Notes: a model not told the origin generated them from the sequence alone. A DNA stretch of 64,000 bases from Chlorokybus atmophyticus (GCA_009103225.1 RHPI01000777.1:151560-215559), one strand, 5' to 3'. Shown: positions 41,905 through 64,000, numbered from the stretch's first letter. A program made the numbers and translations.

Positions 41905-42050
41905 GTCATGCACATCGAACGGCTGAGAGTGTGCGCTAGGCCACGTGAGCCTTTGCTGACACGTGAACGGCGCTGCGTAGGCCCTCCGACACCCGCTGCA
42001 GCAGTAACTAGCAGCGGCGGCGGCGGCGCAGGGTGGGTGGGTTGTGGCGT

Positions 42051-42356
42051 GCACTTGAGCAAGCACAATGGCGCCTCTAGCGCCAATGAGAACAACAATT
42101 GCGGCGGCAACTGCCGCAGCAGTGAAGGCCTTGCCATGCGTGGCAAGGCTGCCAGCTGCTCTGCCTCTGAGCCGCTTATGAGTCCGGTGCAGCTGGCATC
42201 GGCGGCGCCATGCCTGGCGGTGCAGGGCATGGTGACGACAGCGCACAGCAGGTGCGCACAGCGCGCTCTCCCCTGTGCGTCCTCTGACGTGGCATTGGAG
42301 AGTCGTTGTAGATAGACTCGCCAGCCAATCAGCTGGTGAGTGCTAATGCATGAACA
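42051..42356. repeat. Split direct repeat A2 of the YR retrotransposon
   Basis: About 305 bp matching 49153-49461 (gcacttgagcaagcacaatggcgcc ... actcgccagccaatcagctgg.gagtgctaatgc.tgaaca). Confidence 0.85.
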
Positions 42357-42495
42357 TCTGCGCTTGCAGCACGATGATAGCAAATCTTTATCACGAACAT
42401 ATGTCGCTTGCTCGACTAGATCAAATTTTGGCATTAAGTTTCAGCCATGGATGAGTGTCCTCATCAAGGCTGTGCTAACAGCATAGGCAAGTTTA
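42357..42495. repeat. Split direct repeat B1 of the YR retrotransposon
   Basis: Directly abuts A2 and matches 41758-41904. Confidence 0.8.
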
Positions 42496-42578
42496 CATAG
42501 TGTACTCACTGCCAAGTTTGCACCACACGCAAACTGTCAACAGCACAAGCTGTAGAAGCTTACGGGCACACACTGCGA

Positions 42579-43788
42579 GTGCCAGCACTCGAGCATGAAG
42601 AACGAGTGCACGCAGGCTCTCAACATGGGCGAGAGCAGTTACTGGCGGCTGTTGCAGTTGCACAAACAGTTAGTGCACACGCTACTGGTGTTAAGCACCA
42701 GCATGCAAGCAGCGTGGCATGGCGTAAATTCTCTGGCTTCGTGCAAGGGCACGGGGAAAGCGTATACACAGTAGGCCCGCATTTCAGCAGGGCCTACCTG
42801 CATGGGCACTGGTTGCCTAAGCACGTTACTCGTGCTCGCTGCAACACTAGTGCCGGAGGGCCTTGCATTGCAGCCGGCTTGCTGCGTAGCGTGGTAAACC
42901 ACTTGTCCAACAAGTACGCCACTTTAAGTCGTGGCAACATGTGGGATCCTGTGCGAGCAGCAGGCAACCCGTACAGATCTCCTGAGGTACAAGAGCATCT
43001 GAAAGGCTACCAGCGCATGCTGGTGGTTGATGGCTTGCGTTCTCCACAAGCTGAGCCTTTAACCGAGCAACAAGTGCAACAGCTGCTCACTCATCTCAGC
43101 CAGCGGGCTGCCAAGCTGAGCGGCGTGCTACAAGTGCTCATCATGCGAGACAAGCTATTGTACTTGTACTTGTGGAGTACGTGGCAGCGTGGTAGGCAGG
43201 GTTGTAAGGTGCGCGTAGACAGCGTCAACCACAACGATACCGATAGTGGGGTGTATGTGCAACCTGTGACGTTGAAGAATTGGAAGGACCAAGCAGCACC
43301 CCGCATTCCTGTGCGAGATGGTGCGGGGTTGCAGTTTGTCAAAGAACTACAAGAGTTCCTCTCGCGAGCTTACGAGAGTGGGCTATTACTGGGAACTGGG
43401 TACATCTTTTGAAGCTTGCATCAGAATAGGCGCGTGTGGTTGGAACAACCACTCAGCTATGCTGCTGCCAACAGGTTGTTCAAACAGCACTTGCGAGATA
43501 GTGGCGTGCAAGTTGATGTAGCCCTGCACAGCTTCCGTTAGGGGGGGGGGGGGGGGGGGNNNNNNNNNNNNNNNNNNNNNNNNNNNNNNNNNNNNNNNNN
43601 NNNNNNNNNNNNNNNNNNNNNNNNNNNNNNNNNNNNNNNNNNNNNNNNNNNNNNNNNNNNNNNNNGGGGGGGGGGGGGGGGGGGGGGGCAGTTCGGCGAA
43701 GCCTCAGGTGACTGCAGGCAAGATGCAAAGGCAAGGAGCATGGCGCACCACACACATGGTGGCGCACTACACACATGTACGCCGCTAA
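42579..43788 (+). pseudogene. Tyrosine recombinase of the YR retrotransposon (opposite strand to RT)
   Basis: GNPYRSPEVQEHLKGY, AEPLT and RDKLLYLYLWSTWQRG (catalytic R) come first. After a TGA at 43410-43412 the frame continues LFKQHLRDSG...LHSFR (HxxR). After the gap comes MQRQGAWRTTHMVAHY (W and catalytic Y), with TAA at 43786-43788. Confidence 0.85.
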
Positions 43789-43899
43789 GAACTCAATTAG
43801 TAACACAACATGTGCGAAATGTGCTGGGCTACGACCATGGCTAGGCACTCTTGGCACTCTCACAAGCAGCATAGTGCTGGGGGGGAAGACCACCGTGTC

Positions 43900-44208
43900 C
43901 TACATTGGCAACTGCATGAGTTGGGCCCAACAATGTTTGTGAACCCACTCCGGCACTAGCAGGATGCACTCACGCGTGTGGTGCGCCACTAACCGGACAG
44001 GCAGGGCGACTAGACTGAGGGGCGGGAATACCCAAGCCAAGCCAGCTGCGGCCACGTTCCAATCTGCGGTGAGTGCATTACCTACTGCGCCTGAACAGGT
44101 TGCCGCAGCAAAAGACACCTGTGCCTTGGTGTTGCCGGCGGAGGCGAAGCAGTCCAGCACGGGCTGATCCCATCTACTGCAACACAGGCGTGTCGGAACT
44201 GGCGCCAA
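43900..44208 (-). pseudogene. Dam-like methyltransferase (MT) domain of the YR retrotransposon
   Basis: VLDCFASAGN...NALTADW...AWVFPPLSLV...CILLVPEW...CWAQL matches the DxFA..N / FPP / vPxW pattern of the MT domain that follows RNase H in DIRS elements. Confidence 0.75.
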
Positions 44209-44314
44209 GCTCCAGTCGCCAGTGTCTGGCGCTTGCCAGCAGATCGGCTACCTGCAGATAAGCCCGCGGCTGCTAGTAGCAGTGCAGTTGCCAGTCCTGG
44301 CGCCATAGCACGTC

Positions 44315-44656
44315 CTAAAGCTGGAACAGCTCCAAGCGCAGGTACGGGTTTCGTGCAGTCAGCCTGCGCAGGTTGCTCAGCGCTGGCTGGCAATCACCCT
44401 GCATGGTGATAGTTACGTGACGCAGGGTTGGCTGGGTGCGTGCAAGCTCGCACAGCACACGGATGTAAGCCAGCGCTTCCGTGACAGGTGGCGCCAGCTG
44501 CAGCTCATGTGCTGCGAAGTTTCCCTGCACATGTCCCCAGGGGGGAACCGCCCCCCACCCATGAGTGCCTGAGGCGTCAGCTTGCAGCAGCACCGATGAG
44601 GGCGGTTTCCACCACGTACAGCCATGAGCTGCGTATGCACGCAGCCGCGCCAGCAA
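44315..44656 (-). pseudogene. RNase H domain (DIRS-type)
   Basis: LQADASGTHGWGA...TEALAYIRVL...TMQGDCQPALSNL shows the D/E/D pattern of DIRS1-type RNase H. Confidence 0.8.
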
Positions 44657-45920
44657 TCAGGGGAGGAGTTGCGTGGTGTCGGCTGGCGAGGCGAAGAGGG
44701 CATCCCACGTGAGCGCCTTTACGAGCGGCTCAAGCAGCGTTCTAGCAAACAGCAGCACATGGGGCATAGCTAGTTTCAGAGATACTAGCTTGCCTGCCAC
44801 GTGCACCAACTGTCTGGCCGTGACGCAAGGCTGCCGCTGGAGGGTGCAAATGTCGTCCTCCAGCTGCTGCAACTTGTGCAGTGAAATTGCAAAAGCACTT
44901 GTGTGTGAGTCCACTAGCAGGCCCAGCAATTTAAGTTGCTGGGCTGGTTTGGGGTTGCAGTTTGGCCACCCCGAACAACCACCCCAGCACTGCGAATAGG
45001 CGCATTACTAGCTTCACCCTCCAACGCAAGTGCCGCTTGTGCTGGTGGGATAGGTGCATGTCATCAATGTAGGACAGGGTGCCGAGGCCTCGCATTCGCA
45101 ATGGCCTGTGCATGACTTGCTGCGTAAATGTGAATGCATAGCATGCGAAGGTAAAAAGGTAGCACATTCCACTGGAAGATTTGACCTTGGTATGACACAC
45201 ACAGGTAGTTGCGGTGCTGTGGCCGGATAGGCACATGATGATAGCCCGATTTCGTATTAAAGTTGCTTGCCACCACCCTTTGTGAGCGTAGTGTAAGATG
45301 TCCGACAACTTCTCGTAATGGAATGGAATGCGTTCTAGGAAGATGTTGACATATCGTAAGTCAATAACCAACCTGAGCTTAGGTCGAGTCACAGTCACAA
45401 CTCCCATGCCCGACACCACTTGACTGGCTGCATGCCTGAGCACTGGCGTCATAGATTCTGTGAGGACCAGGTTGCGCGAATTTGTCTTGCACGAAGGAGG
45501 CATGCTCAGCAATGGACGTCCGGTTGGTGAGCAGCACCGGGCTGGGAGTGCGTTTGTACAATGCAGCCTGGCTGCTGGTTGCTCCAGCCTTCCGCGCGCA
45601 GCATGACATGTACTTGCTTCAGTTTCTTGCTTGCAGCTTGCCCTGTGCCAATGAACTGCAGCGGCAGGCCCTGGCGCAGCCAAGTCAGAACTTTGTAAGC
45701 TGCGGGGTGGTCAGTATGCTTGACCCAACACTCCCACGCATCAGCATGCAGGGCCGGCAGCGCTGCTGTAAAGGCAGTGGCATCGTGCATGATGCTTTGC
45801 AGCTGCGCCAGCCACTCCGCAGCCGAACAGTCCGGCTCGACAGGCGCAGCTGCCAGGCTGTCTAGGTCGGCAATGACTTGCTCAACTACTCGGCGCTGGC
45901 GCTGCACAGCCCACGGCGGC
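44657..45920 (-). pseudogene. Reverse transcriptase of the YR retrotransposon, frameshifted
   Basis: Motifs in several frames: AWECW...VLTWLRQGLPLQF, KLRLVIDLRYVN, KSGYHHVPIRP, FQWNVLPF, LSYIDD (~45065), LLGLLVDS and QLVHVAGKLVSL. Confidence 0.85.
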
Positions 45921-46599
45921 GAAGAGCGCGGAGTGGGCCAGTCATCTGGTCCTGACTGGCGCTCGTTGCGCAGCAATGCCTGCTCCGCGAGCAGCTGCAG
46001 ATCCTGCTCCTCCTCATGCTCTGGGTGGGCAGCACTGAAAGACGTGTCCTCGTCACACCAGCTGCCGGTGAGGCCGTCAGCAGTGTCGATGGGCTGCACG
46101 GCAGGCTGGCAAGCTTGCGCAGGCTGCGAGGCAGCAGGCAGCGCCATTGCAGATGGCGCTGAAGCTGGCGGTCGCCACAACAGCTGCTGCTGCTGCGCAC
46201 ATGCACCATGCCAGCAGCTGCGCGACTTGTTAGGCGAGCAACGCTGCGCTGGCAAGGATGGTGACGCGGCTATGGTGCAAATTGCGCTCAGGTGCCAAGG
46301 CGGGGAGGGGGCCTGAGATGTGGGTGCAGGCCAGCGACACCTGCGGCGCGGAGTCTCAGGCGAGAGGCAGTAGCATGCAGGCCAGCGCATGCAGCTGTGT
46401 ATGCAGGCGCAGGCGCTACCACGCATTCAATGTAGCAGCGCAAACAGGGTGCAATGCACAGAGCAGCATTGCGCTGAGGCAGAGGAGATGGGGCGAAAAA
46501 TACATGTATAAACGAGGGGAATACCAGGTTCATGCACGCACATGTGCAGCTGCATAAGCTGGCACTAGCTAGCTGCAACTGCAGACACTGCTTAACTAC

Positions 46600-49114
46600 T
46601 CACACGTTGTCGTCTAGAGGCTTTGCAGGGTTGTTTCGCCATGGGCGTTTCTCGTGCAGCCGACCACCAACTACGTTGTGCTGGTGGTGATCATGGCGTC
46701 GTTCTTTGTCTGACTGGTTGGGGGCATTGGCGTCGCGCTGCCCAGCTTCTTTGCCACCAACAATCTTAAGCGGGTGGCAAGCCAGCAAGGCCAGCATAAG
46801 CATGAAGCAAACAAGGTGGCGGCTGCTGGCCAGCACGCACAGCACGTGAGAGTGCGAACATGTCAGCACAAACACAAGGGCACGGCGACCTGGCCACCAT
46901 GCACAGAGCCGCCCTTAAGCACAACACAACACACAAGGGCACGGCGAGCTGGCCACTATGCTCAGAGCCGCCCTTAAGCAACACGAGTACCTGACCACGT
47001 GTTGGAATTGGCTCCAATGCTGAGCTGCCGTACGTCTCACTTCAATGTACAATCCCAAGACCTCGTCTATCAGGCGAGCCTCGTTGAAAGCTGCGGATAG
47101 CTTGGTTTTGGCCGCCTCCAGCAAGCGGGCATAGTCTTCACTGAAGGTGGCGCATTATCTTCTCCGAATTCTCGAAATAGGCTAGCCTCCAGCAGCACAT
47201 GTACGTAAGCTGCCATTGGAGGATACCTTGAGTCTGTCACAAGCTCCGAACGGCGCCACAAGCTGAGAAGGCCCCGCATGGAGGTGTCGTTGGTGATACG
47301 GTTGACGATATTCTGGCGCACGCGCACATAGTGGGAAGTGCGCGTGAACTGTATGACGTGCATACCATCTGGTGCGAGGATCATGCATGCCGTGGTGTAG
47401 GCAAAGACATCTTCTTCTTCTGGTGGGGGAGGTGGTGGTGGCGTGTGCGTTGGTGCATCTATGGGGAGCACATACACTGCAGACACCTATGCTCTGTGTT
47501 GCGAGGGCAGGATTGTGACATTGAGGGTTCCTCGGGCAGGATCCTCCACGCTATCAATGCGTGCCAATAAGCACTCTCCGCTCCGTCCTGGCACGTAAAC
47601 ACCTTTATGGATGAGAGCGCGGAGGTCGGGGGGTCGAGTAGCGTCACCGCTACTCGAAGTCTGATTCGTCTTCACTGGGATAGAGGGCAAGGTAGCTAAC
47701 CATGGCATCAGAGAGGGCTTGAAATGCCCCAGCTGCAGAGGCAAACTCCGGCTTGCAACGACGGCGAGCTGCGCTTCTGGCGGCACACAGGGTGGCCATG
47801 CGGGAGCCATGAGAGCCGGAGGCGCTGCTGCGCCTTTGGGGGGAGGCGGAGGAAGCGGGCACGGAGAAGGCGGCGCCCCCGGAGGGGCTGGGCGAGGTCC
47901 GCACGACATGACATCCAGTGGTGGGGGAGAGCGGTGGGAGGATTTGGGCCGGCTCCTCGCCGGCGCGCGCCTCCTGGCCGGGCTCCTGCTTCTGCTCCGG
48001 CTGCATCACTTGCTGCGCGCCCGCTCCCAGGCCGGCGTCCACAACGACGTCGGCGAGCTGCTGCGGTGGGACCTGGCCGGGCGGCGCAGGTGGCGGCGAG
48101 GGCTGCGGCGCGGGCTGCGCCGCGTGCTGTTGCTGTGCCACCTCGGCGGCGAGCGGCTCCTGTGCCGGCGCGGGCTGGGCGGGCGGCGCTGGTGGCGGGG
48201 GAGATGCCGGGCCATCTCATCATCCATGTGGCGCTGGAAAGGTAGTGCACAGGGTGGTGCGGTCCCTGCCAAACACAATGCGCAAGCTGCGCACTCGCGG
48301 CACAACAGCTTGATCACGCAGCAAGCGCGGCAGTGATACGGTGATTAGGTCGCGCCAGACACCGCCAGCCCCACGCACCTGCAGCGGAACATGTGCCGCG
48401 GCACATAGCTGAGTCATGCAGCCCAAAACACGGCGAGGGGGGGAAACGCTGCAAGTAAGACAACAAAGGAAGGGGCGACAGCAGCAATGAGAAGGCAGCT
48501 GCAGCTGCGGCAGCTGTGTGAGCAGCGGCAAGCAGCCACAGCAGCAATGGGGAGCGGCAGCTGCTCAGCAAGCAGCTGAGCGCAATGATGAGAGGTTGGC
48601 GACAGCTGCGTAGCAAGCAGCTGCGGCAACAATGATGGGGTGCAGCCGGCGCATAGCAAGCAGCTGCAGCTAGCATGAGTTGACACTTTTCGGCTGCAAG
48701 GCCATGACACGCAGCAGGGACATCGGCGCAGGGAGCTGCACAACAAGTGTGCCACAGCTGAGCCCAAATTCACCTGCGCAAGCAGCGATGCGGCTGCGGG
48801 AGGCTGACGTCGCTGATGCCGACCTCGACCACCAGGCGCAGCTCTTGGCTGCCGTACAGGGGGATGATGCCGAGGACCACCCGGTCGTGCATGGGGCGGT
48901 CGTCGGCGTAGCGGACGTCAACTTGCTTGGCGATGTCGATTGCCAACAGCTCGTCAACAACGATGCCCAGGGCCACCTGCTGGTGCCAAGCACTCAGCTG
49001 ATAGAGCGGAAGCTGCCGCCCACCAGCTGGTGCTCGACCCCCGTCGTCCGGAGGCAGCAGAAAACGCTCCGTGCCAGGGGGCGGCGGCTCCAGCGGCGAC
49101 CAACACTTGAGCAT
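46600..49114 (-). pseudogene. ORF1/gag-like region of the YR retrotransposon, fragmented and apparently intron-containing
   Basis: An ATG at 49114 opens a GC3-rich exon to a CAG|GTGAAT donor at 48773. Downstream are a Pro/Gln-rich segment (47650-48141), LIHKGVYVPGRSGECLLARIDSVED, and a helical segment LLEAAKTKLSAAFNEARLIDEVLGLYIEVRR. No recognisable domain; exon phases are not fully consistent. Confidence 0.4.
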
Positions 49115-49152
49115 GGCAGGCGCAGCCCCGTGCTGCGCAGCAGCAACACGCG

Positions 49153-49461
49153 CACTTGAGCAAGCACAATGGCGCCTCCGGCGCCAACGAGAACAACAAC
49201 TGCAGCGGTAACTGCCGCAGCAGTGAAGGCCTTGCCATGCGTGGCAAGGCTGCCAGCTGCTCTGCCTCTGAGCACCGCTCATGAGGCCGGTGCAGCTGGC
49301 ATCGGCGGCGCCATGCCTGGCGGTGCAGGGCATGGTGACGTGACAGCGCACAGCAGGTGCGCACAGCGTGCTTTCCTTTGTGCGTCCTTTGACGTGGCAG
49401 GGGAGAGCCGTTGTAGATAGACTCGCCAGCCAATCAGCTGGCGAGTGCTAATGCGTGAACA
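49153..49461. repeat. Split direct repeat A1 (5' end of element) with terminal hairpin
   Basis: Copy of 42051-42356. Contains a perfect 10-bp stem actcgccagc/gctggcgagt (49421-49446). Confidence 0.85.
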
Positions 49462-50675: not shown

Positions 50676-51189
50676 TGTAACAGCACCACCGTTGCCGGTA
50701 ATGCCCCTTCAATCCTCTACCCCAACACCCACACCGCCTATGACAAGCCTTTCAGCGGCGTGGCCGCCACTGAGCAGAGAACTTCAAAGTGAGGTCACAT
50801 CAGTTTGATGTCACCTTTTATATCAAGAGTATATCAAATTTATACCTCTCGACAATTAACTTACAATTATACATCAACCCTACAGATGGGGTAGTTAGGA
50901 AATCCAGCGTGAGCCAATCACAGCTCAGGTAACATACCTATCGAAAGATACCTATCGTACGGTACCTACCGAGATAGTGATCACATTTTATCAAATGCGA
51001 CATTAAATAGGCTTGAATAAGCGGTTCTACACCCATTGGGACTCATTCAAGCTATGATAAAGCATCATAGCCTTCAATGAGAGAAGAACCGTAGAAAAGA
51101 GGTATAGATAAGCATGTTTAGATACTTATTCATACAGAACGTGTTATTTAGGTAGCAATAATACCCCTATTATTATTGCTCTCATTACA
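50676..51189 (-). repeat. 3' LTR (514 bp)
   Basis: Begins tgtaacagcacc and ends cattaca; alignable along its length to 57219-57746. Confidence 0.95.
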
Positions 51190-51203
51190 TTCCCCCCCAC
51201 TTA
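51190..51203 (-). other. Polypurine tract
   Basis: The minus strand reads AAGTGGGGGGGAA immediately before the 3' LTR start. Confidence 0.85.
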
Positions 51204-51339
51204 AGTTTTCAACGTCCTCGTTGAACTCAAGTTGATCAGGCTTCGTTTCGAGTAATTGTAACCGGTGAAATAGCAGGAAATGACAGGGTGGTAATGAAAC
51301 TGCACTGCCAGTCTGTCATGAAATAAGCCCACAGTTTAC

Positions 51340-54300
51340 GGAACAGGACGTGAATCCCAATAAGCTCGAAGCAACTCGCGGCAGTTCGTAAGATGCCTGT
51401 CGGGATCTCAACCGTTATATTCTGGGCCATACCCTTTCCATTTCACCAAATAGCGAGTTGCGCGTCCTCGACTATTTAGCTCATGGTTCAATATAGCTTC
51501 CACCTTGTATACGAGCTCGCTGTCCACAACTAGCGGTGGTGGAGGCTGTGTTCTACCGTCTGAGCGGTAAGGTTTTAACAAGTTCACATGGAACACGTTG
51601 TGTATACGCACACTTGGGGGCAATTGCAGTCGATAAGCGTGCGTACCAACTCTATCAGTGATAGAGAAATGACCTAACCATTGGGGCAGCAACTTGCGAG
51701 CACCCGTACCTTTGATGGTTATGTTCTTTGCGTTAAGCAAAACTTTATCGCCGACATCGAAAGTGGCCATTTTTTAATGTGTATCAGCATAAGCTTTTTG
51801 CCTGTCCTGTGCTTCTGACAGACAAAGCTTGGCTCGAGCCAAGTTTTCTTGCATATCAGTGGCAAATTCCCTTGCCGCTCGTACAGTCAGGGCATTGCGA
51901 GGTACACGCAATGACGCTGGTGTGTTCGGGCGAATCCCATAATTCAAGGAAAATGGGGTTTCATTTGCACTTTCCTGCCACGCGTTGTTCACAACGAACT
52001 CTGCCATTGGCAAGTACCTGTCCTGGCAAAACACTTCTTCCAGTATTTAATTTGCTCGCTCAGTTTGTCCGTCCGTTTGCGGGTGGAGAGCAGTCGACAT
52101 TCTTTATTTTAACCCCAACAATTCACAGACTTCTCCCCAAAACTTGAAGACAAACCGAGGATCGCGATCTGTGACAAGCTCATGCGGTACACTGTGAACT
52201 CGAAAGACCGTGGACACAATTAATGTGCTAAGTCCCGTGCACTCACAATTGTGCAACACGGGGCAAAATGCACCATTTTTGTTAAACGGTCGACAAAAAC
52301 CACAATAGCAGTGTATTTGGCTGCTGTTTCAGGTAGGTCAGTAATTAAATCCATACTGACACTATCCCACTTTTATTCTGGGATTGCCAATGGTTTAAGC
52401 AATCCCGCTTGTTTTTGTCGTAGTGGCTTATTACGTTTACACACGTCACATGTGCGAACATATTAATCCATATCAGCTGACATTGACGGCCATCAGTATA
52501 ACTGTTGCGCAGCTTTGAGTGTTTTGTGTTTTCCCAAATGCCCAGCATACGGCGGGTCATGCACTGATTGTAAGCATTGCTTACGCAAGTCGCCCGAGTT
52601 GGGAATTGCCAACTGCTCCCCTTTATACCACAGATTGCCAACAGCAGTATGTTGTTGCAAGTTGGTTTGTCTGCTAAACCAATCATATGAGTTATGCCAA
52701 CTGCTCCCCTTTATACCACAGATTGCTAGCAGATTGCTAGCAGCAGTAACCTGTTGCAAGTTGTTTTGTCTGCTAAACCAATCATCTGAGTTATAACCTG
52801 TGGACACTTCCTTAAGGAAAGGATCTTCAGGCTGTTGGACATTGCGCGTACTTCGAGAGCGCGTAAGTGCCAAAAGAGCAGGGCTACGACTTAGTGGATC
52901 CGCCACATTAGTGCGACCCGGACGGTATTGCCAAGTGAAAGTGAAACGAGAAATGAATTCATTCCACCTAGCTTGCCACCTCGACAGGTTCTGTTGCGTA
53001 TGTAAGAATGTGAGCCGGTTGTGATCAGTAATCGCTGAAGTCTCCACACCTTCCAAGTAGCAACGCCATGTGCGCAGCGCGTGCACCACCCCGAGCAATT
53101 TCTCTGCTCAGTGGTTGTGTAATTACGTTTAGCAGGAATGAACTTTCTGCTTTCATATGCACATGGTCTCTCAAACTGTAGAAGGACTGCCCCACACCCA
53201 ATGGTGGAAGCATTACTGATCACCAAAAAAGGCTTGGTGTGGTCGGGGAAGGCTAACACAGGGGCTTGTGTTAATGCATCTTTAACGCATGTAAAAGCAA
53301 CCTCGTGTGCCTCCGTCCACACAAATTTAACATCCTTTTCAGTAAAGATGTTAAAGGATTTGCCATGCTAGAATATGCTCGCATGAACTTGCGGGAATAA
53401 TTGGCTAGCCCCAAGAAAGCACGTAATTGATGTACATCCTTGGGTGGTGGCCAATCCCTCACCGCACGCACCTTTTTGGGATTTGGTTTCAATCCTTCTT
53501 TGCCAATCACATGCCCTAAAAAGGGTAGTTCATCCTTTGCAAAGTTGCATTTGGACAGGTTGGCATAGAATTTGTGTTCGCGTAACTTAGCTAGAACCAA
53601 TTCCACATGCTTGTGGTGTTCCTCCCGGGTTTTGCTGAACACAAGAATGTCGTCAAGATATACCAGTACAAACTTGTACAATCCATTAGCAAATACCGCG
53701 TTCATTGCTGCCTAAAATGTAGATGGTGCATTGTTAACTCAAATGGTAACACTTTATACTCAAAGTGTTCTATTGGGATGCGAAATGCAGTTTTTTGCAT
53801 ATATGATGGGTGGAATTTAATTTGATGATAACCATTGGTCAAATCCAGTGTGCTGAACACTGTTGCACCTGACAGCTTATCAAACAAAACAAATCATCAT
53901 TCCAAGGCAAGGGGTATCTATTTTTCACAGTCACTATGTTCAACGCACGGTAATCAATACACATGCGTAGATTGCCATTCTTTTTGGGCACAAACAATTG
54001 GTGCACAATAAGGGAATATGCTCTTTATTATTAAACCTTTGTCCAACAACTCTTTGAGCTGTTTTTCCATTTTCGCGTGTTCTAAGGGACTTAGCCTATG
54101 GATAGGCCGCCAAAGTGGCTTTGCCCCCTCTTCCAACGGAATGGTATGATGTATGTTTCTATCAGGAGGCAACTTCGGGAGTTCATTCTGAAATACATCT
54201 GCGTATTGTTCCGTAAATGATTGCACCACAGGGTCAGCTACGCCCTGTTCAACAAGTGTCTCTACCTGTTGTAAGTGCATCAATTATACTTCCTCACGTT

Positions 54301-55078
54301 TACGCATGCAACTTTTTAGTTGCATAGCAGAGAGGAGCGGAACATTGTCGCGAGCAACACGTGCGAGTACAGGTACGGTTAACGTCACCTTACGTTTACC
54401 CTTACGAAGGGTGCACGTATTTAGTCGAGAGTCCAATTGCAAACCTGCTTCGGTGTGCCACTGTTCACCCAAAACAACATCCACCCCGGGGATACCTATA
54501 TCCACCACGATGAAAGCTGGTCGAGTCTTATGGCTGTTAATAACAAAACGCCCCTTCACCTCCCCAATTGCATTGAGGGTGGAACCAGCAGCACGTACAT
54601 ACGACGTGACTGGTGTGAAAGGTATGTTATTACGTTTCACCCAAGCATGTTCAACAAAGTTATGGTTTGCACCAGTATCAAGTAATGCTATACATGGTGT
54701 GCCCATCAGTTGACTTTTATATCTCCACTTGAGTGGCATTGAGTGACTATCAAATGTAGCTAATGTCGGAGTGCTGTGATTGGTAGCACGCTTGATAAAG
54801 ATCACTTGTAACGGTGAAGTTCCTGTATCTTTGCGTGAGAGTTGCAGCGTTACTTCTCCCCCTTTCAACAATCGCGACCACGGGCCATGATATCGAGGGA
54901 TAAATACACATGCAGTGACAGCATGTTGTAATTGCAACTCGTGTAAGTGCTTAACAGCAGTTACCAATTCAAAGAATGGAACAGTGATTAAAACACAACC
55001 TTTTGCATTTGTCAACACAGGTGGTGTGCTCATATCAGTCCATACATCTATCACATTACAAAGAGGAAACTTTATCAA
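51340..55078 (-). pseudogene. Gypsy pol (protease, RT, RNase H, integrase, chromodomain), multiple frameshifts/stops
   Basis: Motifs: ALLDTGANHNFV (protease), [30 protein letters not shown] (RT), AYESRKF...NYTTTE and ITDH (RH), HDPPYAGHLG...C..C and WDSVSMDLITDLP (INT), KLLPQWLGHF, and YKVEAILNHE...YLVKWKGYGPEYN (chromodomain). There is an ~88-bp internal tandem duplication at ~52610-52795. Confidence 0.95.
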
Positions 55079-55136
55079 GAAGTACAGAGTTTTTTAAGTC
55101 GGTGTGCTCGACTAAGCTACCAACCATGGACAATTC

Positions 55137-56240
55137 CTATTTCTTGTCCTTCTGCTGCTTGGCCTTCTGTGCATTCTGCTTTGCATAGCAGTTGGCCTCC
55201 CCATGACCTGTCTTCTTGCAGAAGTTGCAAGTGATGGTGGATTTCGCCGCATTGTAGGGGCCAGCAGGCTGAGATGTTTTCGCCTTTTTTCACAAAAGGT
55301 TTGTTGTCAGTGGCCGGGCGCTTTGCAGCTGAAGCTTGGGCTGCCTCTTTTGCTGTGGTTTGCATGTTTGCGTGAGAGCGCTTCACACTGTCCACAGCAG
55401 CAACCATCTGCATCAGCATTGGTAAATCCGTCGAGGCCCACTCTTGCAAACTCGCGGGGTTGACGGCCACATGCTGCACGAGATCTGTGTCGAAGCCACG
55501 CCTGAACATATCCAGCTAATCAGCATCACTGATGGGTGGTTTGCCAGCATTGGTCTTGCTGACAAAAGACTGGAAGTCCTGGATACTGCTGAACCGGACG
55601 CCCATTCTGACGCAGATTGTGCAGCTGGTTGCGAGCAACCTGGGCAGGATCTGCGCCACCATAGCGCTGTTCCATTAAAGAGCACAACTGATTTATTTCC
55701 CGTCCAAGGTTCGTATCACGCTGCTTACGGCGGTACCACTCGCCAGAGCATCGTTTGGGATCAGCAACTCAGCTACACGTAACTTCCCCTCGTCAGAAAT
55801 GTGAAGGGAGTTGACATAGTGTCTTAGCTTTACGAGCCAGTCAAAAAGGGCCGCTTGCTTGTTGGGAACAAACTCGGCAGGATGAGCAAGCGCCTGAACA
55901 GGTGGACCACTGTAAGAGCATTAAAGGAGCTCGATCATGTTCAGAACACGTTTGCCTTTACCCATCGATCCCTCCCAATCTTGCCCCATAAAGGTGGTGA
56001 GCTTTGAGATCTTTTCCGCCACATGAAAGAGGAAGTTGACGAGCGCGACAATTGCCTCACGAGGCACCTTATCATAGGTTCCAAGAAAGTGGTCCATCAA
56101 CTCCTGTTTTGTCAAGCTAATTGAGATTTGGCTGCACGAATGATGGTGGTGATGGTGGCCCCTCTGGTTCCACTTAGGAATCCACATCCTTAGCAGCATG
56201 AGACTCAATAGGTGCATCATCCGGGTTGGAAATATCCTCC
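55137..56240 (-). pseudogene. Gypsy gag with CCHC zinc knuckle
   Basis: FDWLVKLRHYV-type capsid segment near 55840, and TCNFCKKTGHGEANCYAK (CX2CX4HX4C) near 55230-55180, ending KDKK*. Confidence 0.8.
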
Positions 56241-57205
56241 ATGGATGGAAACTCCTCCTCACGGGATAATTGCTCTTTTTGTGAGCTTTCCCCCTTTGAG
56301 GTGGGCATCGAGTTCTCTTCCATTTGTCTGCAAAACTGTCAAAATGGAATGGTGAGAACCTCACCAATGGACCAGGTGCAACGAGAGGATAAAAATGACC
56401 CCAAGTTGTAAAAGTCCAAGACAGAGTCCAAACCAGCCCCAAAACAGGAAGGATGAATCTGCAGTGTCACCAAACAGAACAAGTCTGAATGGGACCAGAA
56501 TGTCCTAACCCTGTGTTGTCCTCAACCAAGTCCCAATCTCCAGGCCGAAGCCAGAGGGGGAGGGTTTTAGACTAACAGAGTTTGGGAACAGAATGTCCTA
56601 AAACTTCCCCAAAACTGTCCTAACCAAGTCCCGATCTCCAGGCGGAAGCCAGAGGTGGAGGGTTTGAAAACAGCTTGGTTCGGAACTTGCGGACCCGGGT
56701 CAAGCGACCCGGAGGAGCTGGCAGGTCACATGTATGTCACAGGCATGCAACAGGGAAGCCACAAACATGCAACAAGCAAGCCGTACAGTGACCAACTGTG
56801 ACATGCACTGGCAAGCACAATGACAAGCAATCACCGCATGCAATGACAGGCAATCACTGCAAGCAATGATAGTGCACTAAGTGTGACAAGCAGTGATGGC
56901 AAACTAGCAAGCCGCACTCATGCATTGGCGAGTTACCGAATGATGTGCATGAAAGTACACACGTGCACCTGGCAAGCACCTGGCAAGTAGCTGGAAAGCA
57001 GGCAAGCAGGCAAGTCACCAACGCATGTGATGGTACCTCACACGTGGAGAGGCCGCCTCTTTGATGGGTGGCTTCAACGTTGAGGTAGCGCAGGGAAGCT
57101 AACTTGAAGCTTGGGCTGCGTGGACGAATGGGAGGCCGCCGCCACCGCCTTCTGATTCGCCGCGAGTAGGTCGCCGCCCCCTAAAAGTACCCACGTCACC
57201 CCCCA

Positions 57206-57217
57206 GCTCCGATACCA
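57206..57217 (-). other. Primer-binding site (initiator Met tRNA)
   Basis: The minus strand reads TGGTATCGGAGC, one base from the 5' LTR end; the canonical tRNAiMet PBS is TGGTATCAGAGC. Confidence 0.85.
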
Positions 57218-57218
57218 A

Positions 57219-57746
57219 TGTAACAGCACCACCGTCGCCGGTGATGCCCCTTCAATCCTCTACCCCAACACCCACACCACCTATGACAAGCCTTTCAGCG
57301 GCGTGGCCGCCACTGAGCAGAGAACTGAAAGTGAGGTCAAATCAGTTTGCTGTCACCTTTTATATCAAGAGTAAATCAAATATATACCTCTTGATAATTA
57401 ACTCACAACTAGACATCGACCCTACAGATAGGGTAGTTAGAAAATCTAGCGTGAGCCAATCACAGCTCAGATAAGGTACCTATCAATAAGGTACCTATCA
57501 AAAGATACTTATCGTAAGGTACCAAACAAGATAGTGATCACATTTTATCAAATGTGACATTAAATAGGCTTGAATAAGCGGTTCTACACCCATTGGGACT
57601 TATTTAAGCTATGATAAAGCATCATAGCCTTGAATCAGCGAGGAACCGTAGAAAAGAGGTATAAATAAGCATATTTAGATACTTATCCGTACAGAATGTG
57701 TTATTTAGGTAGCAATAATACCCCTATTATTATTGCTCCCGTTACA
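57219..57746 (-). repeat. 5' LTR (528 bp)
   Basis: Begins tgtaacagcacc and ends cgttaca, followed by the TSD cttaa. Confidence 0.95.
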
Positions 57747-58723
57747 CTTAAGGTGTTTGAGACCGCTATGTTGCAGACGCATGAGGGTCCCTCGGACTCA
57801 CTACGCGTGCTGTTGGCGGTGCTACCGGGCGAACATCATCATGCGCTATGAATCTAAGGGGTCCTTATAGCGCCTTCTACACCGCGTACGGTGAACCCGT
57901 TGTAGAAGGCGCGGCACCAACCACATCACGTGAAAGTCATGCTCCACCGTTCCATTAGAGACTTCAATGTTTAATCCGAGTCGGTATGTGCCAAATCTCG
58001 CCCCGACATGCCCTTATTAACGGTAGAGGAGATGGACAAGTACTGAGCGGCTTTGCCTAAGTTTGCGGTAAAACGGTTGACCTTTACAAGAAGGACTAGA
58101 GATTTCACGCATGTTAATTATGCCATGACCAACATGTGTGAGGACTCAGTGACGTGATAACGTCGCAAATTTTACACGGTGACTGACTAAGGACTGAGGG
58201 ACTGACTGGTGCCTGAGCCTGCCTGAGCCTGCCTGTTGCTGCCTGAAATATTACTTTTGGACTGTTGGGTTTGCCGTTGGCTTAAGTGGACTGACGCAGA
58301 CGGCCGCGGGCCGAAAGTGATTGTTAGTGGCACTAACCGGCCGAGAGTTGTCAACCAGTTACCCTTTGGTCGATGTGCACAGACAGCCGTTGACCGGTAG
58401 TTACGGACAGCTGACAGCAATAGCCGGCAGTCTCTTTGCCGTTACACTGCTGTTAATATGTGACCCTTGCCATTTGACAAAAGTTGGCAATTCTTGCCGT
58501 AAGCTAACACTAACATGCCATTCAGCTTGTACAAACCTTGGACTGATTGTTTGGTCTTGCATCTAAAAGCCCACAATATATACAATGTACGGGCAGTGGT
58601 GAGAGTATGTCCACTTACAACTGAGCAGCCGACTTGCGCATGAAACTATCCCATAACATTTAGTCTAGCTGTCGGACTCATGCGCAGCTTATCAACCCGT
58701 GGTGCCTGCCTCAGAACTCCTCC

Positions 58724-59763
58724 TCAAACCCCCTCCTCATGTTCCTCCTCCGACGAGTCTTCTGCTTCAACGCCGGAGTCATCTTCATCCGCTGCCTTGC
58801 TCGCTGACAGTACAGCGGCTACTTCGTCCTTCAGCTTGAATGTCAGCGCCTCGCCGTGCACGCGCATGCGCTTGATGGTCGCTTTGAGAGTGACCACCTG
58901 CATTTGGTAATGCTGTAAGAGTGGCGTGCTGCCAGAGGACTAGCCCATCAGCATACACACGCTTACCTCGTCTTCCGCTTTGTTGCACTCCGCCAGGCAG
59001 ACAGTCAGCCTGCCGCGCTGCTCTTGGTTCACTCTGACCAACATGGCAATCTGCAAGCATACTGCTTAATTACCGCTGGAAACATTAAACTAGGTCATAG
59101 ATTACCCGTTCGTTTGACTCCGCAGCTTCTCTTTTGCGACTTGTGAGCTCCCGCAAGTAGAAATAGGCTGTGCATTTGCGAGATTGGTCATGCTGTTCAT
59201 GTGCATGACACTGGAGGTTGTGCATGAGGGTGTGCATGTCGTATTGACAATGTATGTCAAGTGCAAGATACTTGAGGCTGTGCATGTGCAAGATAAAAGA
59301 ACCCTAGCATGTGGCATTGACAGTGCATCGTAACCCACCTTGGTTATGCCAGTCTTGTTTGGTCCCTTCAATCATGTCGCCGTGGTCGCAGCTGCTGGTG
59401 GGTCGGATTTTCTTAGAGGCAGTATTGTGGTGTGCCTTTGCCCACTCGGAGGGGGAGCCCTGTAAGATATCGCCCGAGTCACTGTTGTCATTGGATGTGC
59501 CCTTGGTAGTCTTGGTGGGGTTTGACACCGAGGACACCCCTCCGGCACCCTGCCCGCCCTGTGCGAACATGGAATTCATCCCGGACCTCGACCACAATGC
59601 CCACTACGCCCCTGGCAGCGCCGCCAACGATCTTCCAAACGCCACATACCCTCGGCATCACGCCCCTGTAAGGGCATAGCTTGGCGGAGCTATCAATGGT
59701 GTTTTCATGCGCAGGGGGACTGACATTGCCAGAGTTGTCAATGGTACGAACTGCCATTGCCAT
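58724..59763 (-). CDS. Hypothetical ~220-aa protein: disordered N-terminus, coiled-coil, acidic tail (five exons)
   Basis: Exon 59763-59650 plus four more with AG/GT sites join in phase: ...DWHNQ|AYFYLRELTSRKREAAESNER|IAMLVRVNQEQRGRLTVCLAECNKAEDE|HYQMQVVTLKATIKRMRVHGEALTFKLKDEVAAVL...DEDDSGVEAEDSSEEEHEEGV*. The start codon is tentative. Confidence 0.65.
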
Positions 59764-59938
59764 TGTACAAAGGTACCATTTCAATGGTACCTTTGTATAA
59801 TGCCTATACCTTGGGGCAAAGGCATCTTCGTACCATTGAAACGGTTCAATCAGAATATATATGTATATATATATATATCCAGACTCACCCTGGACGTTCA
59901 ATGGCTCGATCGTACCATTATAATGGTACGACGGAGCC
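59738..59938. repeat. Cluster of nested palindromes built on CGTACCATT/AATGGTACG between divergent genes
   Basis: A 13-bp inverted pair tcaatggtacgaa (59738-59750) / ttcgtaccattga (59827-59839) encloses a 15-bp perfect stem tacaaaggtaccatt-tc-aatggtacctttgta (59766-59797). A 22-bp perfect palindrome tcgtaccattataatggtacga lies at 59910-59931. Confidence 0.9.
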
Positions 59939-60094
59939 AGTGACTGGCGGCCAAGTTTCCCGCCTCTGGCATGCAGCGGTAGCGGTAGCGGTGGCGGTGG
60001 CGGTGGCGGCGGCGGCGGCGGCGGCGGGTGTGCGTGTTGCTGGATATGATGCAGGTTACATTGGCGACACCTGTGTCGACGTTAGTAGTGAGAT

Positions 60095-63000
60095 ATGGGA
60101 GTCCTTTGTCCGTATTGCCACATGCGCTTCGCCACACGCAGCTCGGTCTACATGCACATTATTAGCAGCAGGGTGTGCAAGCAGATCAAGCTGTATGTCG
60201 GCCAGCGTCCATTACAGTACGATGCGGGTCATGTTGAACCGGGGAGTTCGATCCAGGATGCTCACATGCTTGATGCTGAAGGATTCCTCCAGGAGACACA
60301 CGCACAGCAGCAACAGGAGGAGGAGGAAGTGAACGAGGGCTTTCGATGTGTGCGTGTGCCTGAGAAACCTGTGGCACGCCAACATGGAAGTGGAGGCGTC
60401 CCTTCGCACGCGTCGGAATCCAGGTGGTATGGCTCGGAGCATGCTCTTGCAGTGGCATTCGTGCAGTGCAACAACGGCCAAGGCCTGTCGGCCTCCGACA
60501 TGGGGCGGATCATCAAGTGCATCCGAAATGCACACTTCCTGACGGAAGAGCTCCAGTGGGAGACCGGTGTGCATGCGGCCAGCTACCTCCGGACCACGAT
60601 TGCTTTCTCTCAGTCTGAGGTGTGTTCACGGTGTGCGGTGCATGTGCTTCAACCATCAGAGCCATGTCACATATGCACATGCGAGTGTGCTGCCGTATCA
60701 GAACTACGTGACGGCTGACCTGCGCAAGCCTGGAGACCCTGAGGATCAGGACATCTGCGTCACATATATGCCGGCCAAGGTCTGTGAAATGCAGTACCTA
60801 ATGCAGTATCGATGCAGTATCTATTCTGAGGCCAGCATAGTAAGTAATGCTCTTGGTCGGAGCAGGTATGGCTCGCGCGGTTGTATGGCAATCCACATGC
60901 CGCCAATGGCTTCAATCTCCAGTACACTAGTGACGAGCACAGCTTTGGCCATCCTTCCACGGGCGATTGGTGGAAGGATGTGGAGGTGGATTTGAGGAGA
61001 GAGGTGGGGGAAGCGTCCTACTTGGCGCCTGCCATTCTGTACAGTGACAAGACCACGCTGGACAGCGCGGGCAAGCGCTCTGGCTACCCTCTGATGGCAT
61101 CGCTTGCCAACTACAGTTGGGACATGTATGCTAGCAACATGGGGGTTGTTATGATAGCGCTTCTGCCGGTGGTTCACTCAGTGGCCAGGCATCCCACCTG
61201 GGCGCAGGGCAAGGAATTGTTCTCCATTCGGAAACGTGAGATTTTTCATGACGCTTTGAATGTAGTGTTTGGGGATGTGAAGCGGGCGAGTTGGGAAGGT
61301 CTGCAGCTCATCGACCCGAATGGCATCGAGCGTCGTGTTTCCCGCGCTTGCCAACTACATCAGCGATTTGCAGGTAGTGGGCATGAATGGTTGTAACCGG
61401 ATGCAGCCTGCCAGCAAACAGTGCATGGAGGATGTTGTCAGTAGAACATCTGAGTTTGTCGTGTTGTAGGAGACTGCCACACTCGCACGCACTGTGTCGG
61501 GCAACCAAACACGACATCCTTGCGATGTTTGTCTCGTCACCAAATCAGATCTGTTGGAGATGGATGAGGACCGGGAATTGAGAACCGAGGCCTTCTACAC
61601 ACCAGCAATACGTCAGCTGCGGGCGGACCTGCATAGCGGTGTTAGGAATGCACGCCAGACAGCCAAGGCTTTCAAAGAGCAGCACTCCATGCATGTCGAG
61701 GAGGTAATGGTCAAATTACCGGCATTCGTGAGGATGAATGGCTTTCCGTGAAACCAGGCAATGTGGTTTGGCAACAGAATGCACTGTGGGGTTGGCGACA
61801 GTCGCGGGTGCCGGGAGCTGACTGCTACTCTCGTCTTGCCCCTGACGCAATGCATGTGCTGGGAGGCATCATTGACCACCTGCTTGCTGCTGTGTACGAC
61901 GCCGCGAAGGAACGAATGCGTCCATCCACGAGACAGATTCTGCAGGCCAGGCACGTCTTTGGTGTTGCTTTTGTGTTGAACACAAAAGCCAACAACACGT
62001 GCTCACGAGCAGATGTGCACAGGCTGAATGCATGCAAGGCGACTCTGCGGGTTTCGCACTTCAAGGCACCCACAAGCACAGTAGATTTCTTCCTGTCCGA
62101 CCACTCCTTTCAGGTGGTGGAGAAAGTGGCGGTGCTGCAGCTGCTGCCGGTCCTCGCAGACGGTTTGCTGCTCGACAGTGAGGGCAACGATTTCTTCACC
62201 ATTGCTGCCGCATCGCTTGCCCAGTGGAACAAGAAGTTGCTCAAGGCGCATGAACACACAAGAGAGACCCTGACCACAGCCGACAACGAGCTGGCTGCCT
62301 TCAAAGCTGCAGTGTTGCATCCGCTACTGTCGTCATATTCTGCACAGAAGTCAGGTTGGAAGATCGAGAAGATGCATCAGCTCACTCATTTTGGGCCGGC
62401 CATTGTTAGCAGTGGACACCCAGATTGGTTCAACGCCAACCGCATGGAGCAGACGCACGCCCAAAATATCAAACGGTGGGCGCGTGGTGGCAACAACCGG
62501 GACTACCAGGCACGTATCCTGAAGGCATGGAGCTGTGCGGAATATGTGAGAGAGGATGGCATGGTCGTGGATCCCGAGATGCGCTCGGTCATGGCGCAGG
62601 CGCGGCAGCAGTGCTGTAATGTCATGGAGAAGACGGACAAGTTGCTACGGATGGATGTGCTGACAAGGAGGGAGTCCAGCCCGTACTGGAGCGCATCTGC
62701 GCGTAGCCGCCAAGTCGCCTTGAAGACTCCATTTGCCGACAAGCTGCCTGCCACCCTGGACAGCTGGTTGAGGAGGGAACAACTGGAGTTGGCCGACGGG
62801 TGGCGTGCTGTTCGCGTGCTGAACGGAGGCGCAGCGGTGTACATGACATCTGGAGTCAGCATGGCGCGCGCAACTGGGATGTTCCATGGGCGGCCTTGGT
62901 TCTCTACACTTGAGTTGGAAGGTGATGAGGACGGTGTGAACGTGACGTGGTGGGCTCAGGCACTCCTTTTTCTGCGCGTGGTGGTGTGGGGTGGTAGCGG

Positions 63001-63235
63001 CGAGCGCGTGTGGAAGGAGGTCGTGTTTGTCCGCTGGTACGCGAAGCTGGATGTGACGAGCGACACAAAGTGCATGGCTCTGGAATGGGAAAAGCGTCGA
63101 GGCGGTCCACATCTCGATGTCGTGACTCTGGAGCAAGTAAAAGGCATTGTCCAGCTGCTCCCCATGTTTGATAAGGACAGCGCCCGTGTACAAGAGGGCA
63201 AGTATTGGGTGAACGTTCACTGCACTTCCACGTGA
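60095..63235 (+). mobile_element. Plavaka-type transposase gene (spliced, one apparent frameshift)
   Basis: N-terminal CPYC-x12-H-x6-C finger. Then STGDWW...AILYSDKT (D), GYPLMASLAN, EIFHDAL, FPALANYISDLQ|E (D), PCDVC, APDAMHVL, WKIEKMHQLTHF...MEQTHAQNIK...NNRDY (E), and a C-terminal RATGMFHGRPWF...FVRWY...VKGIVQLLPMF...YWVN region. Introns at 60620-60701, 60780-~60866, ~61375-61470 and ~61704-61778; frameshift near 61338. Confidence 0.85.
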
Positions 63236-63436
63236 CACATGTACTTGTCTCTCTACTCTGAGTTTGGAGCATATCAGTCAGTTAGGCATTGCTTATCGTA
63301 TGCTAAGACTTTTGCATGTGGACGTGTACAATACCGGGCAGCTGTCACTGCACAACTGTCACCACAATCGAATGATCCATGCAACATTTAACAATCAGTC
63401 CGCCGTGTGGGTAAGCAACAATATAGTGCACCACAC

Positions 63437-64000
63437 TCAAGCCTCATAGTTCCCTGACACAGGAGGGTAGTCACAGCGCATATCCATTGTTTCAATCATG
63501 AGACGCCCTATGCACTCCGCCATTGCGGGAGGAACTGCATTCGCTATGGAAACGGCCGAGGTCATCCATGGCACTCCCAGCGCTGTCTGCCACGCAGCAA
63601 TGCCGCCCCTGGTGCTTGGAAGGCCATAGACCGGGTACATCTGCTGTGGCGCGTTTGATGTCACGATTGTCTTCTTCGCGCTAGCGGACAGGTGCGGCGA
63701 TAGCAGTCCAACTGCCTTGCCCGCGTGCGAGCAGCGTGCTGGTGGGGTAGCTACCACTGGCTGTGTCTCAAACAGACGGTGTCGGAAAGTTGATAGGCCA
63801 AACATCGTGCCACAAAGGGACAGATTGGGTCTGAATGAGGAAGCTGCTCCTGGCACATTCTCAATCACAAACTTGACCTGGCTTGCAAGCAGCAGACGTC
63901 GGACGAGCGGTATCATATCCTGGTGTCTCCAGGATGTGCCATGTGCCGCCCGTTGAGGTGCCGGGATAGCACCTGAATAGGCCTGGCATGGTGGACTGGC
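63437..64000 (-). CDS. DNA (cytosine-5)-methyltransferase, phage/bacterial-type, intronless in visible part, 5' end outside window
   Basis: The frame is open from the window edge: ASPPCQAYS (motif IV, catalytic Cys), FVIENVPGA (motif VI), LCGTMFGL..FRHRLFE (motif VIII), W..ALGVPWMT...ANAVPPAMAECIG (motif X-like). Stop at 63437-63439. Confidence 0.9.
   Translation of the reverse strand, partial: ASPPCQAYSGAIPAPQRAAHGTSWRHQDMIPLVRRLLLASQVKFVIENVPGAASSFRPNLSLCGTMFGLSTFRHRLFETQPVVATPPARCSHAGKAVGLLSPHLSASAKKTIVTSNAPQQMYPVYGLPSTRGGIAAWQTALGVPWMTSAVSIANAVPPAMAECIGRLMIETMDMRCDYPPVSGNYEA

Follow-up and report, generated by a model that had tools for sequence, protein, structure and literature searches.

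We analysed a window of 64,000 nucleotides of Chlorokybus atmophyticus DNA. At its right-hand end lies the left portion of a Plavaka DNA transposon, which is present in multiple copies and belongs to a young family (Table 1). Three genes lie there in the order that an earlier sequence-only reading had given: a small gene on the minus strand, a Plavaka transposase on the plus strand and, convergent with the latter and about 200 bp past its stop codon, a C5-cytosine DNA methyltransferase (201 nt from the stop at 63235). That reading had the element begin at 58724 and missed a 2-nt frameshift near 61334, the start at 58161 and three 18-bp palindromes.

Table 1. Features of the Plavaka element within the window
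Feature	Coordinates	Strand	Remarks
Left terminus of the element	58161..58240 (end coordinate approximate)	+	Begins CGTCG
Small accessory gene	58724..59597	-	Four predicted exons: 59597-59339, 59167-59106, 59050-58967, 58912-58724
18-bp palindrome, three copies	59773..59929		GTACCATT-NN-AATGGTAC; copies at 59773, 59830 and 59912; pattern search
Plavaka transposase	60095..63235	+	Six predicted exons: 60095-60619, 60702-60779, 60866-61373, 61470-61703, 61778-61950, 62023-63235
Frameshift of 2 nt in the transposase copy seen here	61334..61337	+	Frame change; contig comparison
C-terminal 187 aa of a compact phage-type C5-cytosine DNA methyltransferase	63437..64000	-	Motifs IV to X

The Plavaka transposase domain (PF18759) matches at 60881-61393 with an E-value of 4.3e-18, above the curated cut-off. 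The six-exon model encodes about 909 aa, with an X at one break, and aligns to Plavaka proteins across most of its length, with E-values down to 7e-47. Four of its introns are GT-AG; the fifth and last is a 72-nt GC-AG intron, which corresponds to a 24-aa gap in all eight of the homologue rows printed. The protein has a C2H2-like finger at its N-terminus, followed by the motif order D..D..CxxC..H-x3-H..E, with YSDKT at residue 260 of the model, ISDLQE at 366, CDVC at 388, KMHQLTH at 622 and MEQTH at 647, all coinciding with conserved alignment columns. In the accessible text of PMC12730594 the CMCT clade is defined by a D-D-E triad that has C(2)C and H(3-4)H placed after its second D and before its E, the arrangement found here. 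Among 31 transposase homologues scanned, 21 matched PF18759, 20 of them above the cut-off, and the ten that were looked up came from Closterium (eight), Chara and Calypogeia, at about 21-27% identity. A full HMMER search with the transposase gave 59 relatives; a word-index search with its C-terminal frame gave none, and a PDB sequence search no significant match. In one Chara braunii gene model (P0122) a Plavaka transposase is combined with a histone H2A/H2B/H3/H4 domain, perhaps through a gene-model fusion.

Seven public runs were listed, none of RNA. Three of them, from two studies, hold at least half of the window's words. X1 and X3 may be the very material from which the window derives; X4 and X5 contain few of the words, gave short low-depth pieces and were set aside for questions of habitat and species. 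Two extra letters occur at the frameshift site in high-depth contigs from X1 and X2 and in one X5 contig, so the common form of the transposase is open and the window copy is either broken or mis-assembled.

The same contigs locate the left end of the element. Loose contig ends occur before 58161 in X1 (five contigs, agreement 0.51) and before 58160 and 58161 in X2 (four contigs each, agreement 0.58 and 0.51), and in these runs, which represent two studies, the flanks of the contigs that meet the window at this point are mutually different. Differing flanks joined at a single point are the signature of a terminus, which places the start of the element here and not at 58724. Read depth rises from 0-1.7 at 57814-58027 to 156-423 at 58242-58455, and is about 100 (X1) or 140-450 (X2) across most of 58670-64000, except for lower values at 59740-60167, where the palindromes and repeats lie. 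Contig depth is not a copy number, but set against the depth of 3-6 in divergent contigs the high values suggest that nearly identical copies number in the tens. Against the eight longest X1 pieces, 21 of 3486 bases differ in the window. The copies are dispersed and share a sharp common terminus, as do those of Plavaka and other CMCT elements.

The bases preceding the left end are A/T pairs, both in the window and in the consensus lines of the loose ends. The terminal CGTCG is two transitions away from the CATCA of PlavakaB, the reference termini being defined on fungal families. No second copy of the left terminus occurs within the 64-kb window, and Rfam gave no matches across 57748-64000. 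In all, the evidence covers 5.84 kb of the element within the window and about 0.8 kb beyond it. Further loose ends, facing inward, were seen at 58204, 58225 and 58235, with raised depth at 58242-58669; they may mark the limit of a terminal repeat or shorter non-autonomous relatives. We also weighed a CACTA-like word at 49460 as a possible left end, but preferred 58161.

Removal of three predicted GT-AG introns (171, 55 and 54 nt) leaves the small gene with an open frame and a predicted product of about 190 aa that has a helical-looking middle and an acidic tail; the start is uncertain, the first ATG being at 59579. The gene had earlier been described as coiled-coil and acidic. The tail bears out the second term, but the first is unsupported, as a crude heptad score was equalled by 219 of 1000 shuffles. 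Neither of the two exon-containing frames searched had a Pfam match. The palindromes sit between the divergent small gene and transposase. Their pattern matched at three clustered sites (0, 2 and 0 mismatches) and, with three mismatches, at 29794, against 0.24 matches expected, a lenient control since the pattern was derived from the same sites. They are candidate protein-binding sites, and the small gene product might, as a guess, be a binding or scaffolding partner.

The remainder of the window contains other mobile elements and host genes. A full-length chromodomain Ty3/Gypsy element at 50677-57747 (minus strand), with TGT..ACA ends, a CTTAA target duplication, two LTRs about 90-97% alike and a coding region in several broken frames, ends 413 nt from the Plavaka terminus. 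At about 42000-49461 there is, by eye, a DIRS-like element with direct repeats at 42048-42356 and 49149-49461, a tyrosine-recombinase-like frame at 42501-43412 (plus strand) and reverse transcriptase-like frames at 44931-46426 (minus strand); its frames had no Pfam support at E 0.05. The segment 49460-50676 directly follows the DIRS-like repeat, starts with CACTAGTGG and might represent an end of a further element, of CACTA type. Two spliced host genes on the minus strand, at 31614-34428 and 19970-20428, encode an FAD-dependent aromatic-ring monooxygenase and an armadillo-repeat protein. The intron-rich genes, the chromodomain Gypsy element and the nearest transposases suggest a green-algal host. 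With spliced genes and retroelements as neighbours, the locus as far as position 64000 lacks the cluster of intron-poor viral hallmark genes expected of a giant endogenous viral element.

The methyltransferase is a single open frame that begins at the catalytic SPPCQ, where it is cut by the end of the window. The fragment had no Pfam match and matched PHROG 363 (phrog_363, DNA methyltransferase) with an E-value of 1.9e-8; no second methyltransferase-profile match was found in the 64-kb window. The PCQ, ENV and RxR motifs pointed out in the sequence-only reading are borne out by alignment with 54 homologues, in which PPCQ (motif IV), ENV (VI), RxR (VIII) and the final WM...PP (X) all fall in register. 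The signature of the compact phage family (LCGxMFGL, RHRLFE, WM..PPA) is present, as is its short spacing between motifs VIII and X. In 95 homologues motif I (FxGxG) lies a median of 55 aa before the catalytic motif and is thus expected beyond position 64000; a SAM-binding N-terminus of about 55-60 aa is predicted there, for a full enzyme of about 240 aa. A structural model of the fragment (pLDDT 80) aligned with DNMT3B (Z 8.4, rmsd 4.9, 148 residues aligned) and with M.HhaI (Z 7.4, rmsd 3.8, 155 residues aligned), fold matches to DNMT1/3 being at 10-22% identity. In a Foldseek search of the PDB nothing reached E 0.001, and chains of DNMT1, MET1 and DNMT3 headed the weak rows.

Homologues of the enzyme are numerous in phages. 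Among 625 candidate proteins 328 matched, and the best 120 were at 30-42% identity and mostly 200-250 aa long. A phage collection held 323 family records, all under 60% identity, from phages mostly of Mycobacterium, Streptomyces, Paenibacillus, Arthrobacter and Gordonia, and viral contigs held at least 491 confirmed members among at least 603 pattern matches. We constructed a phylogenetic tree with 78 rows that included 50 of the 120 short homologues, 15 of 50 long ones, six linked to reverse transcriptase and six canonical enzymes. The window enzyme nested in the compact family and was split from the six canonical enzymes, only two of them labelled as eukaryotic, at 100/100. Its end branch is long (0.91), and it had no well-supported sister in a tree whose bootstrap was not fully settled. 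Its nearest homologues are compact prokaryote and phage-type proteins and not members of DNMT1, DNMT3, CMT or DNMT5. The phage-type assignment made earlier agrees with the PHROG match and the tree. Judged from these comparisons, the enzyme family is of phage ancestry.

The phage loci give some indication of what the family does. Neighbouring frames were taken from 50 of 80 viral loci and searched against PHROG; 36 of the 82 frames had any match, among them 19 replication or recombination genes and two HNH nucleases, and no TET or restriction enzyme was named among the 82. Phage C5-methyltransferases are reported together with TET in the part of PMC8256090 consulted. Seventeen of the 97 long homologues are fused to DNA polymerase A (P0221, P0222, P0227, P0230 and others), hinting at replication-coupled methylation in phages, and in Gordonia phage Yakult the family gene (gp45) follows polymerase I. 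From this gene context and these fusions, the family gives the impression of an orphan enzyme linked to the replication of phages. We found no paper testing its specificity.

Some relatives are linked to reverse transcriptase. In P0267, a protein of 1341 aa, the compact methyltransferase stands ahead of a reverse transcriptase (PF00078), with a tail that by eye resembles RNase H; others are P0268, P0269, P0271, P0272, P0302 and P0303, and six of the group form one clade (100/100). The fused group is likely a second capture, by a DIRS-like retroelement. A sister relationship between this group and the window enzyme was considered and is unestablished, with support of 88/87, two other rows inside and long branches on both sides.

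The proposal that the transposon encodes its own C5-methyltransferase has two parts. The Plavaka transposon itself stood. Neither a right terminus nor a target-site duplication was seen up to position 64000, and the case for the enzyme as its cargo is built on read depth and unbroken contigs. The interval 63100-64000 is spanned in one piece by an X3 contig of 2521 nt, which extends about 800 nt further on both sides. The eight loose ends in this comparison are each a single contig, and the high-depth ones listed represent a 2-nt indel at 63410. The public-run contigs contain no group of differing flanks and no high-depth junction between 63235 and 63437, depth is level across the spacer between the two genes and at repeat level from 58161 to 64000, and older copies at low depth, diverged by 6-16%, likewise extend over the end of the transposase, the spacer and the end of the methyltransferase. 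With many flanks at the left terminus, continuous repeat depth, no junction and a bridging contig, the methyltransferase very likely lies inside the element. The same depth, flanks and contig argue against a single-copy methyltransferase and against an adjacent giant-virus insert or contaminant, the outcomes that had been named as contrary to the proposal.

The enzyme appears to be constrained. At columns conserved in at least 90% of the 54 homologues, 34 of 37 residues are kept, as against 14 of 58 at variable columns. In decay simulated after the pattern of the old copies (10% substitutions, 0.5% indels) the frame stayed open in 1.3% of runs, on the assumption that mutation is as rapid in the mobile lineage as in dead copies. 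Among the methyltransferase variants listed for low-depth copies (40 of 119 rows), six are silent and ten non-silent, including a stop, and low-depth copies carry three single-base deletions in the gene; these decayed copies therefore show no selection. The window differs from the dominant allele by one silent and two non-silent changes, both of the latter outside conserved columns and near the C-terminus. We consider it likely that selection has maintained the methyltransferase in the mobile lineage. With the predicted SAM-binding N-terminus, it would probably make 5-methylcytosine. Some phage C5-methyltransferases with altered motifs VIII-X were inactive on expression, according to the text available from PMC8256090.

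Our preferred reading, which we hold with somewhat better than even confidence, is a multi-copy Plavaka transposon with a phage-derived C5-methyltransferase inside it that is likely active and likely marks the element's own DNA. The useful target may be the element itself, at its ends and palindrome cluster, a narrower suggestion in which we have rather less confidence. The transposase would move the element by cutting and pasting through the usual DDE mechanism, which is established for the clade, and the self-supplied methyl mark would gate its binding or expression; cutting might, for example, be allowed only on hemimethylated DNA just after replication. Jumping just after replication is how a cut-and-paste element gains copies, and both IS10 and maize Ac are active on hemimethylated ends after the fork has passed. 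Alternatively, the mark could mask new copies from host silencing. Methylated transposon ends can block transposase binding, as stated in the portion of PMC3627910 seen. A more speculative version, which we regard as rather doubtful as a whole, is that a phage replication-module enzyme was domesticated so that self-marking times or shields transposition, and that the same family has been captured recurrently, also in reverse transcriptase elements.

Three other explanations were weighed, and we rank broad action in trans first, passive carriage second and a separate neighbouring element last. It is unlikely that the methyltransferase is an active cargo acting broadly in trans on host DNA with a mark of low specificity, perhaps at non-CG sites, and helping the element indirectly because host silencing is diluted or confused. 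Proteins of about 220 aa leave little room for a target-recognition domain, the phage relatives adjoin or are fused to replication enzymes, and retrotransposon DNMTs methylate any CG de novo in the part of PMC5890265 available. The host DNA of the window, however, is not depleted in GC or in any dinucleotide beyond a mild loss of CG. The element has a CG observed/expected ratio of 0.76, compared with 0.70-0.78 in host DNA, its GC is not depleted and its dinucleotide profile is alike; this lack of a footprint of its own also counts against the preferred reading. The 19 C>T/G>A changes listed for low-depth copies fall in CG (four), CHG (seven) and CHH (eight) contexts; with no single motif among them, no target sequence can be inferred.

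It is less likely still that the enzyme is a recently captured passenger without a role, its motifs reflecting selection in a phage or giant-virus donor. The methyltransferase has no intron in 564 nt while the small gene has three and the transposase five, and its GC3 is 0.56, as against 0.59-0.69 in the transposase exons. The family has a giant-virus member, the C5-methylase of Pithovirus LCPAC201, which matches the structural model of the fragment (E 1.5e-8) and makes a giant-virus intermediate possible. The pairing was not found in a second species in a weak test on metagenome contigs, from which one related Plavaka locus of 2.4 kb, L082, was recovered (a scan with a four-row alignment, one locus from 104 pattern matches); inspection of this locus by eye showed no methyltransferase among the ORFs listed in the 1.4 kb after the stop, a point that also weighs against our preferred reading. 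Against a passenger, copies about 10% diverged share the layout, the dominant young form is open, and there is no close donor, since the viral and metagenome contigs contain no close relative and the best identity is about 40-42%. A different repeat beside the Plavaka element, either a nested or abutting mobile element or a viral remnant, is a very improbable source of the methyltransferase: the window is rich in mobile DNA, the same family is fused to reverse transcriptase in P0267 and no right end of the element was seen up to position 64000, but flanks do not differ at 63235-63437, depth is level there, one contig bridges the interval and viral contigs hold no transposase relatives.

Transposons are usually fought with cytosine methylation. 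A recently spreading DNA transposon that retains a 5-methylcytosine writer would therefore widen the arms race, so far one of erasers (TET/JBP) and DNMTs on retroelements, to include cut-and-paste elements equipped with an enzyme from phages. On the more speculative version above, the compact phage family would be an undescribed, recurrently captured source of transposon-borne 5-methylcytosine writers in eukaryotes. The enzyme would also offer a route for orphan DNMTs into eukaryotic genomes, a class treated in the accessible portion of PMC12344493. With a predicted length of about 240 aa it lends itself to simple assays, and it would test whether self-methylation helps a DNA transposon.

Comparison with known systems puts the novelty lower than the sequence-only reading implied, because DNA-modifying Plavaka cargo is already in print for red algae and fungi, as far as the accessible parts of those reports go. 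We found no paper describing a C5-methyltransferase on Plavaka or any other nuclear DNA transposon, in a search that had most subscription papers and Repbase entries outside it. Plavaka elements are reported in chlorophytes and streptophytes, and Plavaka giant repeats in Amoebidium, in the sources as available. The giant Plavaka elements of the red alga Bostrychia carry accessory genes PAG1-3 (bioRxiv 10.1101/2025.02.11.637652, in the text consulted) and, like the element described here, combine a transposase with accessory genes, one of them a putative DNA methylase. Inverted-repeat arrays inside them, beside PAG3, are proposed binding sites, which our palindromes recall. In Bostrychia, however, PAG2 is a fusion of SET with an N6-adenine methylase, and PAG3 is a ParB-2OG oxygenase, whereas here a stand-alone C5-cytosine enzyme of a phage family is present.

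The fungal TET/JBP Plavaka elements (PlavakaB) and other CMCT elements share the same transposase motifs and the principle of an element-borne 5-methylcytosine enzyme, as described in the available text of PMC12730594. Their cargo erases or oxidises 5-methylcytosine, while the cargo here would write it. The CGTCG terminus agrees with the CATCA of PlavakaB at three of five bases, but CMCT termini as given there are canonically CA.. or TGT (TGT..ACA in PlavakaA, CATCA..TGATG in PlavakaB), and ours is neither.

The DNMT retrotransposons of Symbiodinium and Klebsormidium (PMC5890265, as far as its text was available) are likewise nuclear transposons with their own C5-methyltransferase; self-methylation has been proposed for them, and some of the enzymes are active in yeast. 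They are retroelements, however, in which the DIRS and Gypsy enzymes are of host-type Dnmt3 and the LINE-borne ones form an orphan lineage, and the proposed camouflage of new cDNA is not directly transferable to DNA that has been excised. Mariner-1_OLpv, from a marine giant virus, is, like this element, a DNA transposon encoding a C5-methylase, but according to the accessible part of PMC3627910 it resides in a viral genome and combines a Mariner transposase with a canonical 344-aa enzyme and an EcoRII-like endonuclease. The enzyme itself resembles the compact orphan C5-methyltransferases that actinophages and other phages encode (PHROG 363), which have about 220 aa, the same motifs and 30-42% identity, but these adjoin or are fused to phage replication genes, whereas the enzyme here very likely lies in a spliced eukaryotic transposon. 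The pairing of Plavaka with a phage-type C5-methyltransferase appears new as far as our literature search reached; DNA-modifying Plavaka cargo, and C5-methyltransferases in other transposons, were already known.
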